IMG/VR virus record: IMGVR_UViG_3300020171_000001
Location: 1-64,000 of that record
Source of the DNA: a virus
DNA: 64,000 nt
Reading direction: 5' to 3' (one strand)
A model generated the notes under the pieces. It worked only from the letters and a program-made list of their open reading frames with translations. It was not told the origin of the DNA and did not search any database. Position 1 is the first letter of the stretch, and every line of letters begins with the position of its first letter. Shown here one piece after another: positions 25,300-39,652 of the stretch. The position numbers were made by a program, and so were the translations under genes.

Positions 25300-25481
25300 G
25301 GTGATGTCTCCTTCGCCCGGGTACTGGCCGGGCTCATCACGGTTGGGGAGCAGCAGCCGATATCAGCGCTCGCTCCGTCTGGTGAAAGTCAGGTAGGGAG
25401 ATGTGGGTCGAGAGACCCCTCCCGTGTGCCTGGCTTTCGGCTGTCGGGCTCGGAGCCGGAATTGGCTCAGAGTCCGCAGCG

Positions 25482-25552
25482 CGGTCCCGGCCGGGGGTGT
25501 CGAACCCCCGGGGCTGGCGGCTTGGGAGCCACCTGCCCGGTCCTCCGCCGGG
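25482..25552 (-). ncRNA. tRNA-like element TLE3 (no D stem, no 7-nt anticodon loop)
   Basis: CCCGGC/GCCGGG acceptor + CGGGGG-TTCGACA-CCCCCG T-arm + ACCG; internal hairpin; 71 nt. Confidence 0.65.
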
Positions 25553-25650
25553 AGGGATAGGGGGCGGGCCAGGTCGGGTGGGAACCCGTGGGTCCTGGCT
25601 CGCCCCCCAGTAGTCGGTTGGGGACCGTGGCCCACAGTTTGGGCCCCGGA

Positions 25651-25742
25651 AACTGACTGGCTGGTCAGCCAGTTAGCCGGGGCTACGAGATGACCGACTG
25701 GTCAGTTTGGTAGTTGGGGCTACGAGATGACCGACTGGTCAG
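25651..25742. repeat. 27-bp direct repeat x2 with TGACC-N4-GGTCA palindrome, plus one variant; operator-like
   Basis: GGGGCTACGAGATGACCGACTGGTCAG at 25679 and 25716; variant TGACTGGCTGGTCAG at ~25654. Confidence 0.8.
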
Positions 25743-25790
25743 GATACCTACATCGCCCTACCTGTGGGGTATGGTAAGGTAAGGTTCTGT

Positions 25791-25970
25791 GGGGCAAAAT
25801 GCCCCGGTGGGGTGTGGCAGAACGCCCCAACTGGGGAGAAATTCCCCAGTGAGGTGCCATGGCGAGGGGGGTGCAGTCACCCCAGTCTCTCCTGGCATAC
25901 CCAATCCACTGGGGCAAAATGCCCCAACTGGGGCAAAATGCCCCAACTGCCCCAACTGGGGCAAAATGCC
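25791..25970. repeat. palindromic GGGGCAAAATGCCCC / CCCCAACTGGGG array
   Basis: copies at 25791, 25911, 25930, partial 25958; variant GGGGAGAAATTCCCC at 25833. Confidence 0.85.
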
Positions 25971-25975
25971 ACACT

Positions 25976-26046
25976 CGGTGGCAGCAAGGGGAGTCGAACC
26001 CCCAGCAGCCCCAAGGCATAGCCCGGGGGCGCGTTCCGACGCTGCC
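25976..26046 (-). ncRNA. tRNA-like element TLE2
   Basis: GGCAGCG/TGCTGCC acceptor + GGGGG-TTCGACT-CCCCT T-arm + ACCG; 71 nt. Confidence 0.7.
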
Positions 26047-26226
26047 AGATGTGCTTGGCCGATTGCGGCCAAGCGTCTGACTGTACCCTTGCTTGCACCC
26101 GGAACCTAGCGACCGCGGGGGACATGAAGCTGGTATCTCCGCGGCAGGACTCCCCATCGGGGTACTGCGGGAACCTTGTAGGTCCGGGTGGCCCATGTCT
26201 GCAAGCCTTGCGGCGAGACATGCGGC

Positions 26227-26247
26227 GTATTCGGTTGTCAAGGTGCC
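26227..26247 (-). promoter_or_regulatory. rrn-type boxA antitermination-like site preceded by boxB-like hairpins
   Basis: GGCACCTTGACAACCGAATAC directly after hairpin GCACTGCCC-GGAAT-GGGTAGTGT. Confidence 0.55.
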
Positions 26248-26324
26248 ACACTACCCATTCCGGGCAGTGCGCTCCGGCAGCAACACCTTCACTGCCAGAT
26301 AGTGTGCCTCAGCGGCACACCTTC

Positions 26325-26876
26325 CTACCGCTCCGACACCCCCCGTGTCGCAGCGGCCACGGCCCGCTGCCGCGTCCGCCCCTTGCCCCGCTTACGCTTG
26401 CCCCGCTTACGGGGGCCGCGGTCCTCCGGGATGGACGCCATGACCGCCGGGATGTCACCTGACATCCGGGCCAGCGCGTCGGGCCGCGGGAAACGGGTGG
26501 ACTGCGCTGCGGTCCACAAAGCCAGGGTGTTGTCCTGGACTTCCCGGTTGCCCGCCGGAACCCCCGAGTGCTTCGGGGACTCCACAACCCGCTTCTGCCG
26601 GGGGCCAGCACCCGAGAGGGCCTTACGGCGCTCCCGTGCCCCGTCCAGCACCGAACGGGCCCGTTCCCGCTCCTGGACGGTTGTGCCCCTCTGTTGCAAG
26701 GTACGCTCGGCCCCCAGCATGGCCGACTCGTACCGGGCCGTGACACGGGACAAGTCCCGCGCCATGTCCTCTGGCACGCCACGCCGACGCAGCGTCCAGT
26801 AGTCGAGGCGAACCCGGAGGGTCGCCTCAACCTGTCGCTGCGGGACGGTCCCGTTGCTACCGTTGCCGCGTGCCAT
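26325..26876 (-). CDS. basic (Arg/Lys-rich C-terminus) hypothetical protein
   Basis: RBS GAGGAG; RKRGKRKRGKGRTRQR tail. Confidence 0.7.
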   Translation of the reverse strand: MARGNGSNGTVPQRQVEATLRVRLDYWTLRRRGVPEDMARDLSRVTARYESAMLGAERTLQQRGTTVQERERARSVLDGARERRKALSGAGPRQKRVVESPKHSGVPAGNREVQDNTLALWTAAQSTRFPRPDALARMSGDIPAVMASIPEDRGPRKRGKRKRGKGRTRQRAVAAATRGVSER

Positions 26877-35287: not shown

Positions 35288-35874
35288 CCAAGCCCATCGC
35301 GCTGGTGAAGCAAACCAACCCCGACGAGGTCGTGGCCTATGCCTGCGGCTCGTGCGGCACCGTGGTCGGAACCGCCAAGTCCCACGGGAGCAACGCACAG
35401 GGCATGGCCGAGCGATGCTGCGCACCGCCTGCCTGCCAGCAATGCGGAGCGGTGCACGACCGGAAGCACCGGCTGTTCTGTGGCCCCTGCGAGGTGGCTC
35501 GCGAGGCGGCTCGCGAGGCCAGGCGGTTTGCGGCTGCCGAGCACATCCCGGCGTCGGACTACGACGGTCCCGTGTACTGGGACGGGACGGGGAACGATGG
35601 CTACTCCCCGTCTGTCGCGGACCTGCTCGATTGGTTTGCCGACGAGGAGACCGAGCCGCCGGCCTACGTCTGGGCATGCTCGGTGCGCCACCCGAGCCTG
35701 GACGCAGATGATCTCCTGGAACACGCGCTGGACGACCACCACGAGGACTGCGACCTGGACGCTGTTGACGAGTTGCGGGCGTTCGTCGCGCGCTGGAACG
35801 CGCAGCAAACCGACGAGACATGGGACGTCGACGTTACGTGTGCTGTGCTACTGACCAACGAGGTGGAATCATGA
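35284..35874 (+). CDS. Zn-finger hypothetical protein
   Basis: CGSC, CQQC, CGPC; acidic C-terminus. Confidence 0.7.
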   Translation: MTKPIALVKQTNPDEVVAYACGSCGTVVGTAKSHGSNAQGMAERCCAPPACQQCGAVHDRKHRLFCGPCEVAREAAREARRFAAAEHIPASDYDGPVYWDGTGNDGYSPSVADLLDWFADEETEPPAYVWACSVRHPSLDADDLLEHALDDHHEDCDLDAVDELRAFVARWNAQQTDETWDVDVTCAVLLTNEVES

Positions 35875-36024
35875 CTCGAGCTACTTGCCCCGGCCCCAGC
35901 CTGGGGCAGCTGGAACGGTTCCCAGAGATGCTCCACGTCGCGGCCCTGGAGGTTAAAGCCGCTTCCAAGAAAGTTGGATAAACTTGGACAAAGGGGGCTT
36001 GACAGGGCTAACAGGAGGACTAAA

Positions 36025-36249
36025 ATGAGGGTGGTTTCAGTGAGCAGGACAGAGTTCAAAACGGAAGATGGCCAAGTTTACCCAATCGATCCGCCACTTA
36101 CGGAGGACATGACGCCGGATGAGTTCCAAGAGCACTATGACCTCGCTGCTGCCCTTGTCGGAAGCCTCCAGGCTTCTGGGGACAACGCCCCGAACACTGA
36201 GGCGCTGGGACGCAGCCGGAAAGATCAAGACGGTAAGGAGCCCCGGTAA
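36025..36249 (+). CDS. small ORF overlapping tnpA 5' end in another frame
   Basis: RBS AGGAGG; MRVVSVSRTEFKTEDG... Confidence 0.55.
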   Translation: MRVVSVSRTEFKTEDGQVYPIDPPLTEDMTPDEFQEHYDLAAALVGSLQASGDNAPNTEALGRSRKDQDGKEPR

Positions 36250-36763
36250 TCACCGGCTCATCCCCATGTCCGAGATTGAACGACTCCGAGGCGAAGACGC
36301 CATTCGTCGGACAGTTACGCTGACATACTGTCGCTGTTCCACACATAAACAAAAAGAGAACCTGGACAGACAGGTAGGCAGGCTCCTGGAGCACTGCCTC
36401 CAAGAAGGCTGGAAGCCAGAATTGTTCAAGGACATCGGCAGCGGCCTAAATGACAACCGCAAGCAGTTCAAGAAGCTCCTCAAGCGGATACCTGGCGGGG
36501 ACGTGAAACGGGTGTTGGTGGAGTACAAGGACAGATTATGTCACTATGGATTCACGGTGTTCCAGGGTTACTGCGAGGGCTTGGGTGTTGACGTGGTGGT
36601 GCTAGAGGAGCAAGAGCATAAGGAATTTGAGCAAGAGTTTGCCCAGGACGTAGTGGCTCTAATCGCGTCCTTCTCAGCCAGACTGTATGGGAGAAGGGGC
36701 GGTAGGAAAAAAGTGTTAGTTGCTGCCACGGAGAAGCCAACGGGAGATGGAAACGATGGCTGA
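36119..36763 (+). CDS. tnpA: IS607 serine transposase TnpA
   Basis: MerR-like HTH (RTLRRWDAAGKI) + YCRCS, DIGSGL, KDRL, FSARLYG. Confidence 0.95.
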   Translation: MSSKSTMTSLLPLSEASRLLGTTPRTLRRWDAAGKIKTVRSPGNHRLIPMSEIERLRGEDAIRRTVTLTYCRCSTHKQKENLDRQVGRLLEHCLQEGWKPELFKDIGSGLNDNRKQFKKLLKRIPGGDVKRVLVEYKDRLCHYGFTVFQGYCEGLGVDVVVLEEQEHKEFEQEFAQDVVALIASFSARLYGRRGGRKKVLVAATEKPTGDGNDG

Positions 36764-36980: not shown

Positions 36981-38180
36981 GTGATCCTCTCCCACAAAAT
37001 ACGGCTGATCCCATCTCCGGCCCAGGAAGACTACTTCCGACGGGCCTGTGGTACAGCCAGGTTCACGTACAACTGGGCACTGGCTGCTTGGAAGAAAGCC
37101 TACGAGGCGGGAGAGAAACCCAATGGGCGAAGCCTAAAGATCAATTTCAACGCTCTTCGGAAAGTTGAACTGCCCTGGACTTACGACGTTCACCGAGACT
37201 GTACTGCGGGTGCCTTTGACAATCTCCAAGGTGCCTTCCAACACTTCTTCAGGCGAGTGAAAGCGGGCGAGAAACCGGGCTATCCAAAGTTCAAGAAAAA
37301 GGGATTGGCGAAGGATAGCTTCAGCATCGCCAATGACAAGTTCAGCCTCGATGGCAAGAATATCCGGGTGCCCAAGTTGGGCTGGGTCAAGATGCGGGAG
37401 ACTCTTCGCTTCACTGGGAAGATCATGTCCGCCGTGGTGAGCCGAACGGCGGGCCAGTGGTTTGCGGCTATCGCTGTAGATACTGAAGTCATCTCCCAGC
37501 CCCCGAAAGCCAAAGGGGCTATTGGAGTTGATCTTGGGATCTCAGCATTGGCCACGATGTCCGATGGAAGGAAGGTTCAACATTCTAGCAAGTGGGGGAA
37601 TCTGGAGAAACAAGTCAGGCGACTTCAGAAATCCGTGAGCCGGAAACAAAAAGGATCTGCAAGTAGACGCAAAGCCGTAGGCAAGCTGGCTCGGAAGCAC
37701 CTGGAGTTAGCCAACCTCCGAAATGATCTGCTGCACAAAACCACAACAGACTTGGTGCAGGGGCACCAAGGGATTGTAATTGAAGATCTCAATGTCCGAG
37801 GAATGGTCAAGAACCATTGTCTGGCACGTTCCATCTCCCGACAGGGGTGGGCTGAGTTTCGTCGCCAGCTTGAGTACAAGTCCTCGATGCACGGCAGGGA
37901 TTTGGTAATTGCGGACAGGTATTACCCTTCGACGAAGACATGCTCGGGTTGCGGGGCGATCAAGCCTGTTGCTCTATCCGAACGTGTTTACAAGTGCCCT
38001 GTCTGTGGGTTGGCCATAGACAGGGATTTCAACGCAGCAATAAATCTTTCAAGACTACGGGCGGGTAGCTCGGATGTTAAGCCGGTGGAGATGGAAGCTC
38101 TGGCCAGTGGTAGTATCGCTGGTGAAACTGCTGTCTATGAAGCCGGAACAGGGAGTGGACCGCTTTGTCCAACTTCTTGA
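36981..38180 (+). CDS. tnpB: RNA-guided endonuclease TnpB
   Basis: RuvC D (GVDLG), E (IEDL), D (DRDFNAAINL); CSGC/CPVC Zn finger. Confidence 0.96.
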   Translation: MILSHKIRLIPSPAQEDYFRRACGTARFTYNWALAAWKKAYEAGEKPNGRSLKINFNALRKVELPWTYDVHRDCTAGAFDNLQGAFQHFFRRVKAGEKPGYPKFKKKGLAKDSFSIANDKFSLDGKNIRVPKLGWVKMRETLRFTGKIMSAVVSRTAGQWFAAIAVDTEVISQPPKAKGAIGVDLGISALATMSDGRKVQHSSKWGNLEKQVRRLQKSVSRKQKGSASRRKAVGKLARKHLELANLRNDLLHKTTTDLVQGHQGIVIEDLNVRGMVKNHCLARSISRQGWAEFRRQLEYKSSMHGRDLVIADRYYPSTKTCSGCGAIKPVALSERVYKCPVCGLAIDRDFNAAINLSRLRAGSSDVKPVEMEALASGSIAGETAVYEAGTGSGPLCPTS

Positions 38181-38433
38181 AACCAGCTGTCAGAGATGCT
38201 GGAAGCTCTTCGACATGGGGATCCGCAGAGCAAAAGCATTCCGGGTTTCACACACGTCGCTGAGGAAGCGGCTGACCTCATGATCCGGCTGCTGGACTTC
38301 TGCGGCGCTCGGGGTATTCCGTTGGGTGCAGCTGTTCTGGCCAAGCATGCCTTCAACCAGACCCGCCCGCGCAAGCACGGCAAAGCATTTTAATCGCGGG
38401 CCTGCGGGCCCGCGGGTCCAGCGCAGCCCTTTG

Positions 38434-38473
38434 AAAAAAAATAGTTGACGTGCCCTGCCCCGTCGGGCACACT
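38434..38473 (+). promoter_or_regulatory. sigma70-like promoter with A-tract UP element
   Basis: A8, TTGACG-N17-CACACT; GTGCCC/GGGCAC inverted repeat spans the spacer. Confidence 0.65.
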
Positions 38474-38479
38474 TCTGGG

Positions 38480-38900
38480 GTTCATCAGTGGCGGGTGCGG
38501 GTTGGGGCGGCCGGTAGCCCGGGCGCCTTCCGATGTGGGCAAGCGCGGAGCAGCTTCGGCTGCCCTGAGGCTCCCAGTGAGGTCCGCACCGGTCCCAGTA
38601 AACCCTTCGGGGGCTACTGAGACGCCATGCAGCGATGCTTCAGGACAAAGCTCACCTGATATGGCATCGAGGCTAAGGCGCCAGGGACGCCAAGCGCTTG
38701 CGCTTGACACCGAGCTTTTTGCTGGTGGAACGCGAACGGGGGCGCAGCGGTTTGGAGGGCACGGGTGCCAGGCGAGTTCTGCAAGCCCGGCTCTCCGCCA
38801 AAAGCCCTGGTTAGCCTTCGGGCGCCGGGGACAAAGCCCGCTGTAGCCCAGTAGACTCAAGGGAAGCCATGTTGGTCCGCGAGGCCCTTCAGGGCTTTTT
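38480..38900 (+). ncRNA. candidate ~400-nt structured non-coding RNA
   Basis: three cUUCGg-capped hairpins and several other stems; flanked by promoter and terminator; no credible RBS/ORF. Confidence 0.65.
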
Positions 38901-38907
38901 CTTTTTC
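38881..38907 (+). terminator. intrinsic terminator
   Basis: GAGGCCC-TTCA-GGGCTTT followed by TTCTTTTT. Confidence 0.8.
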
Positions 38908-38920
38908 TGTGCTTGTCCAG

Positions 38921-38972
38921 CGTCTGTCGCTGTTTGCCGCTGTTTGCCGCTGTTTGTCGCTGTTTGTCGCTT
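38921..38972. repeat. 10-bp tandem repeat (GCTGTTTGYC), ~5 copies; probable operator
   Basis: abuts -35 of RHH promoter. Confidence 0.85.
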
Positions 38973-38977
38973 TGCGG

Positions 38978-39006
38978 TTGACAAACCATGCCATCGTCGC
39001 TACTCT
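38978..39006 (+). promoter_or_regulatory. sigma70-like promoter
   Basis: TTGACA-N17-TACTCT. Confidence 0.75.
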
Positions 39007-39047
39007 CTCCGAAAGCGCCAAACACCGCTGAAGATGGAGCGCATCGA

Positions 39048-39248
39048 ATGGCAACGCAACAAGTCGCATTTCGCATCCCGGAAGATATGCTCACCGAGGT
39101 AGACCAGGTCGCTGCTTGGATGGCCGCGAGCAACCCTGGGGTGCGGGTCACCCGGGCCGACGTGATTCGGTACCTCCTGGCTCGCGGGCTCAAGGCTCTG
39201 GATCGGCAGAAGCGCGGCCGCGTCCAGATACAGGAGGACCGGTCATGA
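39048..39248 (+). CDS. ribbon-helix-helix protein
   Basis: QVAFRIPEDMLTEVD...TRADVIRYLLARGL. Confidence 0.85.
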   Translation: MATQQVAFRIPEDMLTEVDQVAAWMAASNPGVRVTRADVIRYLLARGLKALDRQKRGRVQIQEDRS

Positions 39249-39652
39249 CCCGTTTGCCGCAAGCGCTGCTCTGCGTCGTCGCCGCCTTTGCCGGCGGGGT
39301 AGCGGCGCAGTGCGGTAGTGATCCCCGCAGCTTCGGATCCGATGGTCTGCCTGACGCGGGAACCGACAGTAGTTCAAAGCCCGGGGTGGGCCAGCGATAC
39401 GACTACACGTTCGCGCTTCAGCCAAACATACCCAAAGAAGTCTGCCCCCCAGCAGGCGCGCCACCGGATAAGTTCCCCGTAATACAGCAGTGGGTTTGGC
39501 TGCGCTCCGGAATCGGCCCTGCCTACCTCAATCGTTGGCTCTTGCTGGATTGGGCGTCCGTTCGACAATCCACGAACGCCGGGTGTCTCACCGTGTCGGT
39601 TTCCAACAACTCAACAGATGCTCATGATGTTCACCTGGTCTTGATCTACTGA
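39245..39652 (+). CDS. secreted/lipoprotein-like protein
   Basis: N-terminal signal peptide, then CGS and PDAG linker. Confidence 0.65.
   Translation: MTRLPQALLCVVAAFAGGVAAQCGSDPRSFGSDGLPDAGTDSSSKPGVGQRYDYTFALQPNIPKEVCPPAGAPPDKFPVIQQWVWLRSGIGPAYLNRWLLLDWASVRQSTNAGCLTVSVSNNSTDAHDVHLVLIY

Follow-up and report, generated by a model that had tools for sequence, protein, structure and literature searches.

The DNA analyzed here (the window) is the initial 64 kb of an IMG/VR phage record of 157,287 bp, which has a GC content of ~65% and direct terminal repeats. Within the plus-strand early region of this high-GC phage lies a stretch of ~430 bases that we consider to be a candidate non-coding RNA (ncRNA). 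Upstream are the two genes of an IS607 element and the remnant of a gene that it interrupted, and downstream is the gene for a ribbon-helix-helix (RHH) repressor. The features of the locus are as follows:

36119-36763: tnpA of the IS607 element
36981-38180: tnpB of the IS607 element
38181/38196-38393: C-terminal fragment of a MazG-like pyrophosphatase gene, interrupted by IS607
38396-38413, plus strand: GC-only hairpin (GCGGGCC-TGCG-GGCCCGC), 3 nt past the stop codon of the MazG-like fragment
38434-38441, plus strand: A8 tract, 3 nt 5' of the -35 hexamer, in an UP-element-like position
38445-38473, plus strand: promoter-like TTGACG-N17-CACACT (-35, 38445-38450; -10, 38468-38473)
38478-38907, plus strand: predicted untranslated transcript of ~430 nt, its start deduced from the -10 hexamer and its end from the terminator
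38881-38907, plus strand: intrinsic terminator, stem GGCCC-UUCA-GGGCU followed by U5CU5C
38922-38971: four to five tandem 10-bp repeats, GCTGTTTG(C/T)C, downstream of the candidate ncRNA
Between the 10-bp repeats and the RHH gene: TTGACA-N17-TACTCT promoter of the RHH gene
39048-39248: RHH (CopG-like) repressor gene, 66 aa

The GC-only hairpin at 38396-38413 has no U-tract and is possibly the end of the upstream transcript. On the other side of the stretch, the tandem repeats lie directly 5' of the promoter and gene of the RHH protein (38922-39050) and are probably the operator array of this repressor, for which no relatives were found among 5.8 billion proteins. The RHH stop codon is overlapped (ATGA) by a 135-codon ORF on the plus strand (39245-39652), with an N-terminus resembling that of a signal peptide or lipoprotein (MTRLPQALLCVVAAFAGGVAAQC...), atypical codon usage, and no Pfam match. 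The cumulative GC-skew minimum of the genome lies a few kb upstream of the candidate stretch. Since the GC content of the stretch (0.63-0.68) is like that of the phage and unlike that of the IS607 island (0.52-0.55), the candidate ncRNA appears to originate from the phage backbone.

The stretch was reported in a preliminary description to contain no credible coding sequence, and our results agree. Three-base GC periodicity was absent from 38390-38930, and when all six frames were scored for codon usage, with 51 long genes of the phage as the training set, no frame was coding; the mean log-odds over 38391-39011 was -0.02, vs. a genome median of 0.23. In a list of the genome's low-coding stretches, which includes foreign genes of atypical codon usage like those of IS607, only about five were longer than 38391-39011. 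Public gene callers identified the flanking 65-aa and 66-aa genes and left 38394-38868 empty, and a dubious 77-aa call (38869-39102), which spans the terminator, was found in one Logan assembly only. With thresholds as permissive as E≤1, the open frames on both strands of the stretch matched neither Pfam nor PHROGs. An ORF of 133 codons with a TTG start (38445-38846) contains an internal 61-codon ATG ORF, and its translation is rich in Arg, Gly, Ala, Ser, and Pro, which is typical of off-frame, GC-rich DNA. Protein-coding potential, whose absence is generally expected of an ncRNA gene, was therefore lacking.

The signals that flank the stretch are strand-specific. The A-tract and the TTGACG-N17-CACACT motif of the preliminary description were both located, and the A8 run is one of six runs of at least six A's in the 157-kb genome. 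Sites of the form TTGAC[AG]-N16-18-NANNNT occur 23 times in the genome, vs. 9.8 ± 3.3 expected from Markov simulations, and nine of them form a significant plus-strand cluster at 30-45 kb (0.47 expected); the site at 38445 is among the nine. Membership of this cluster and the rare A8 run speak for a promoter belonging to the unit itself; however, its -10 hexamer (CACACT) is weak, and a strict sigma-70 scan did not call a promoter at 38445-38473. The spacer harbors a palindrome, GTGCCC-N9-GGGCAC (38450-38470), that is possibly an operator, and a search for a corresponding regulon showed it to be essentially unique. At the other end, the intrinsic terminator at 38881-38907 was confirmed; it is canonical (hairpin and T5CT5) and is on the same strand as the candidate ncRNA.

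To rank the stretch's UUCG hairpins, a 34-nt window at each of the 151 CTTCGG sites of the genome (both strands) was folded with the cUUCGg loop forced. The three hairpins of the stretch had energies of -16.9, -16.5, and -15.4 kcal/mol, ranking sixth to eighth of 151 genome-wide, and were the three most stable on the plus strand of the whole 157-kb genome. The number of top-eight hairpins expected in a 474-nt, single-strand window is ~0.012. These hairpins, as originally described, are therefore present and clustered beyond chance. Four of the genome's five most stable cUUCGg hairpins are on the minus strand (24305, 24681, 26951, and 28744), within 4.5 kb of each other, and surround a 965-nt non-coding stretch (25363-26327). 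The latter was described as a site of tRNA-like elements; ARAGORN and Rfam detected no tRNA there. By raw ORF coordinates, some of the phage's other UUCG hairpins appear to fall within minus-strand ORFs or shortly behind them. Since such hairpins occur elsewhere in the phage, they do not necessarily point to a complex fold.

A partition-function fold of 38478-38907, i.e., a single-sequence prediction, consists of the following elements:

38478-82/38854-58, plus strand: predicted 5'/3' closing helix
38488-38628, plus strand: predicted 5' domain, with helices 38488-92/38624-28 and 38494-501/38583-90
38550-38563, plus strand: first cUUCGg hairpin (UUCG-1), -15.4 kcal/mol, in an arm at 38536-38576
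38592-38623, plus strand: second cUUCGg hairpin and arm (UUCG-2), -16.5 kcal/mol
38633-38669, plus strand: hairpin CGAUGCU-UCAGG/CCUGA-GGCAUCG with a 10-nt loop, ACAAAGCUCA; probability ~1.0
38676-38699 and 38701-38734 (core 38708-38727), plus strand: two smaller hairpins; probability 0.68-0.96
38740-38849, plus strand: predicted 3' domain, with helix 38740-50/38838-49; probability 0.85-1.0
38805-38830, plus strand: third cUUCGg hairpin and arm (UUCG-3), -16.9 kcal/mol, the genome's best plus-strand UUCG hairpin

The predicted 5' domain encloses a hairpin at 38504-38529 and the UUCG-1 and UUCG-2 arms, with pair probabilities of 0.55-0.99, while the predicted 3' domain encloses a 43-nt arm (38754-38796) and the UUCG-3 arm. 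Several arms of the predicted fold have ensemble probabilities of at least 0.95. Two of the stems in the preliminary description, CGATGC..TCAGG/CCTGA..GCATCG (38633-38669) and CACC.GAGC/GCT.GGTG (38708-38727), were recovered. A third, CAAGCGC/GCGCTTG, is present but has a competitor in AGGCGC/GCGCTT, and the suggested closure of the molecule by its 5' GTGGCGGGT and 3' GCCCGCTGT segments, although these can pair, is disfavored in the ensemble and missing from the predicted fold. As read from the sequence, several arms contain G-U pairs that become A-C mismatches on the minus strand; given these pairs and the UUCG loops, structure would matter on the plus strand, if it matters at all. Compared to shuffled sequences, the whole unit's minimum free energy (MFE) had z-scores of -1.41 (plus strand) and -1.97 (minus strand), and local 150-nt windows across the stretch reached z = -2 at best.

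The most striking suggestion of the preliminary description was that the RNA might be a divergent RNase P-fold RNA. The covariance models of bacterial and archaeal RNase P had no match in the 751 bases from 38300 to 39050 (E≤10) or in the window (E≤1). The RF00010 (RNaseP_bact_a) model likewise had no match in the entire phage at E≤10, while the same search was positive in 11 of 14 control genomes. The universal CR-I segment, GAGGAAAGUCC, which forms P4, had already been noted as missing, and we found it to be absent from 38434-38907 even with up to two mismatches allowed. The proposed P1 and P4 pairings do not occur in the predicted ensemble fold, and the segments likened to RNase P RNA are without statistical support. 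Thus, while the candidate resembles RNase P RNA (RF00010/RF00011) in its length, high GC content, and UUCG-capped arms, it differs in having no covariance-model signal, no universal CR-I, and no supported P4 helix, and we set aside the claim of an RNase P-like ribozyme.

Other known families fared no better. No family of Rfam 15 reached its gathering score within the window; at E≤10, the region 38300-39050 gave only trivial terminator look-alikes, and at E≤1, the whole window gave nothing relevant. ARAGORN and Rfam detected no tRNA, tmRNA, or tRNA-like gene over the window, leaving the suggested connection of the RNA with tRNA-like elements unsupported. Models for GOLLD, ROOL, HEARO, OLE, and raiA, searched together with the RNase P models and the full Rfam collection, had no match in the stretch even at E≤10. 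Every Rfam family, RNase P included, is therefore excluded for this stretch. GOLLD, ROOL, HEARO, OLE, and raiA are families defined by many covarying homologues, and GOLLD and ROOL are larger than the ~430-nt candidate. The candidate is like these RNAs in being non-coding, multi-hairpin, hundreds of nucleotides long, and phage-carried, but differs from them in that it has neither an Rfam match nor a homologue among the sequences searched. GOLLD and ROOL are among the RNAs discussed as phage-associated ornate RNAs (bioRxiv 10.1101/2024.12.08.627333; PMC5737381).

Stand-alone phage RNAs with their own promoter and terminator are known, e.g., the pRNA of phi29 and phage sRNAs. With these the unit shares a promoter-RNA-terminator arrangement, a location in the early region, and the lack of an ORF; however, it has no sequence or model similarity to them and is longer than typical phage sRNAs. 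Stand-alone ncRNA cassettes of phages are hence a known kind of element, while this unit matches no described family.

Since the stretch lies downstream of an IS607 tnpB on the same strand, it invites comparison with the omega RNA (reRNA) of TnpB. RAGATH-18-derived reRNAs belong to IS607 TnpB elements (PMC11061315). The scaffold of such an RNA overlaps the 3' end of tnpB and stops at the right end of the transposon, and the candidate RNA does neither. The right end of IS607 was placed at ~38181-38190 by the direct repeat, the subterminal inverted repeats, and MazG homology; as this homology begins again at 38181, immediately 3' of the tnpB stop codon, the element ends ~290 nt upstream of the RNA. 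Neither RAGATH-18 nor other omega RNA models matched in the stretch or window. An omega RNA of the adjacent TnpB was therefore rejected as an explanation, given a candidate that starts at ~38478, has the GC content of the backbone, and lies this far beyond the IS end. The most significant local fold of the neighborhood (z of about -3 in 150-nt windows) is instead at the 3' end of tnpB, in 37900-38150 on the plus strand. This segment, which had no match to RAGATH-18 or any other Rfam family, is likely the omega RNA scaffold, judging from its position and predicted folding, and a guide would be expected immediately beyond the element's right end (~38181-38200).

The IS607 element itself is an island of low GC (0.52-0.55 vs. 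0.65) between the two copies (35923-35932 and 38191-38200) of a 10-bp direct repeat, CAGAGATGCT, and has subterminal inverted repeats at 35971-35996 and 38160-38185. It splits the MazG-like pyrophosphatase ORF, which starts at 35871 and is ATGA-coupled to the gene upstream. Since the two copies of CAGAGATGCT are in the same codon phase, excising one copy and the intervening DNA would yield an ORF of 84 codons. The tnpB gene and the MazG remnant are in the same frame, with only the tnpB stop codon between them. Relatives of the TnpB in genomes were 38% identical or less, so TnpB gives no information about the host or about other copies of the element.

Searches for homologues of the stretch were uniformly negative. 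It had no blastn match among GenBank phages, and a search of its own genome for paralogues and antisense targets gave nothing beyond chance matches of up to 13 nt. No relative was found in IMG/VR, JGI metagenomes, or GTDB genomes using six degenerate 24-mers from the pseudo-ORF as translated patterns, and in IMG/VR, a pattern of the spacing of the three UUCG loops and another of the doubled GGACAAAGC motif each gave chance matches only. The lineage is sparsely sampled; an exhaustive search with PolA yielded one 78% relative, present on a 2.6-kb contig only and found in JGI sample 3300022553, and relatives at 59% in IMG/VR. The nearest complete relative (IMGVR_UViG_3300024259_000016; 114 kb, direct terminal repeats, 59% GC, PolA 59% identical) is collinear with the phage over 81-144 kb, i.e., the structural and replication modules, and shares almost nothing of 1-80 kb. 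The region of the candidate RNA is missing from it entirely, with no match and no comparable UUCG cluster. Because so little of 1-80 kb is shared, the whole window is a lineage-specific accessory arm. Over 13.9 kb, a second assembly of the phage, obtained from another run, is 100% identical and thus offers no SNPs. An attempt to reach syntenic loci by way of the phage's Hsp70-like protein led only to bacterial chromosomes.

The explanation that we propose, and to which we would give slightly less than an even chance, is an early, trans-acting structured RNA of an undescribed family, carried on the phage backbone, transcribed by host RNA polymerase, and selected for stable hairpins. Host RNA polymerase would initiate near 38478 from the A-tract/TTGACG-N17-CACACT promoter, which would be part of an array of plus-strand early promoters, and transcription would end at the intrinsic terminator (38881-38907). 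The ~430-nt product might then fold into a multi-branched structure with three central hairpins between a 5' and a 3' domain, its body nucleated and stabilized by the three cUUCGg-capped arms. Such a stable RNA could work in trans during early infection, most plausibly as a protein-binding scaffold or decoy. Transcription of the unit, both ends of its transcript, the overall fold, and a function or partner in trans, if any, are what we infer. The original view of the unit as a stand-alone phage ncRNA is thus sustained by its intrinsic properties, i.e., the lack of a coding sequence, the flanking signals, and the hairpins, but not by its MFE z-scores, which are unremarkable, or by any homologue. 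With no relatives found and no sign of RNase P, the unit stays a candidate only.

Some weight, albeit clearly less, must be given to the possibility that the stretch is a hairpin-rich, untranslated spacer with no function in trans. According to this explanation, it would be a long 3' UTR and terminator/insulator zone by which the MazG-side transcript is ended and stabilized and early cassettes are kept apart, and its hairpins would be purely local, serving as exonuclease blocks or U-less terminators. An MFE no better than that of shuffled sequences speaks for such a spacer, as do the U-less GC hairpin right after the MazG stop codon and the lack of a detectable homologue, and other strong UUCG hairpins do lie after, or apparently inside, ordinary minus-strand ORFs (by raw ORF coordinates). 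However, a promoter-like site with a rare A8 run is interposed between the upstream gene and the hairpins, all three of the top plus-strand UUCG hairpins are concentrated here, and at 430 nt with eight or more hairpins, the stretch is long for this genome, where only about five of the listed low-coding stretches are longer. It is unlikely that the stretch is instead a cis-acting leader of the downstream RHH operon, in which the structured RNA would decide whether transcripts from the 38445 promoter stop at 38881 or continue into the repeats and the RHH gene (attenuation or antitermination). The 10-bp repeats (38922-38971) and RHH gene (39048-39248) are on the same strand and directly adjacent, and the hairpin of the terminator is short; nevertheless, the RHH gene is preceded by a TTGACA-N17-TACTCT promoter of its own, 3' of the terminator, no known leader, riboswitch, or antiterminator family was matched, and an alternative terminator/antiterminator pairing is not evident in the predicted fold.

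A decayed gene or an unrecognized small-protein gene seems less probable still. Open frames do exist on both strands, including the 133-codon TTG, internal 61-codon ATG, and 77-codon ORFs, and the 77-aa ORF was called in one Logan assembly. Spurious long ORFs are nonetheless common at 65% GC, and here no frame shows codon bias or a family match, the ATGs have no preceding Shine-Dalgarno sequence (by eye), and the Arg/Gly/Ala/Ser/Pro-rich translation is as would be expected of off-frame, GC-rich DNA. We consider it very improbable that the RNA is incidental to a DNA-level element, e.g., a replication or partition locus with iteron-like 10-bp repeats and an RHH protein. Although four to five such tandem repeats and the RHH gene follow immediately downstream, and the cumulative GC-skew minimum is a few kb upstream, the repeats are outside of the stretch in an operator-like position before the RHH promoter, the stretch is not AT-rich and has no good DnaA box, and the UUCG loops and G-U pairs are strand-specific features of RNA. 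A divergent RNase P-fold ribozyme or tRNA-binding RNA, as first hypothesized, is scarcely credible, since the similarity of short segments by eye and a size of ~400 nt are all that speak for it, against the failure of every RNase P model at E≤10 with working positive controls, the missing CR-I, and a predicted fold that does not produce the P1 and P4 pairings.

Returning to the trans-acting structured RNA, a bolder form of the proposal is that the unit is the founding member of an undescribed class of ~0.4-kb structured phage RNAs, expressed early from a host-type promoter and directed against a host function as an RNP scaffold, a decoy, or a ribozyme; this we regard as doubtful, if worth keeping in mind. 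If real, the RNA would contribute a new family to the few large, structured RNAs known from phages, the functions of which are mostly unknown, and from a high-GC, environmental, jumbo-like phage lineage with almost no studied relatives. As an orphan candidate, and with RNase P, the most striking of the original suggestions, refuted, it should hold no surprise for the specialist. Its present value as a single-sequence candidate is mainly as a target for transcriptomics of the samples that the phage came from, such as the one behind SRR6976411, and, once a relative appears, as a seed for covariance-model searches.

Other observations were made in the course of these searches. The Hsp70-family gene of the phage (40761-42614, and 39728-40579) is 63% identical to bacterial genes found in conserved DUF2760-Hsp70-GH172-Hsp70(DUF3731) loci of uncultured bacteria, and the named relatives are from Myxococcales, Planctomycetes, and Deltaproteobacteria. 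Capture from a host is the probable origin of the gene, which may be a clue to the host's phylum. The sole relative of the MazG fragment is in one unrelated, small metagenomic phage locus (L011:4105-6348; also L012 and L013), in which a YrlA-like Y RNA, a TROVE/Ro60 gene (465 aa), and a gene for a 115-aa MazG-like protein are consecutive, i.e., a Ro60-Y RNA module carried by a phage and joined to a pyrophosphatase. The YrlA-like RNA of that locus had an Rfam E-value of 5e-4, under the gathering score. This shared MazG-like neighbor is the one likeness of our candidate to the YrlA/Ro60 system; the candidate is three to four times longer than YrlA, the YrlA model had no match in the stretch or window, TROVE (PF05731) had none in the phage although the controls worked, and there was no further synteny, so the lead was dropped. 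Elsewhere in the genome, on the minus strand at 125668-127947 (L009:1668-3947), a 759-aa ORF carries intein splicing and LAGLIDADG homing endonuclease domains.
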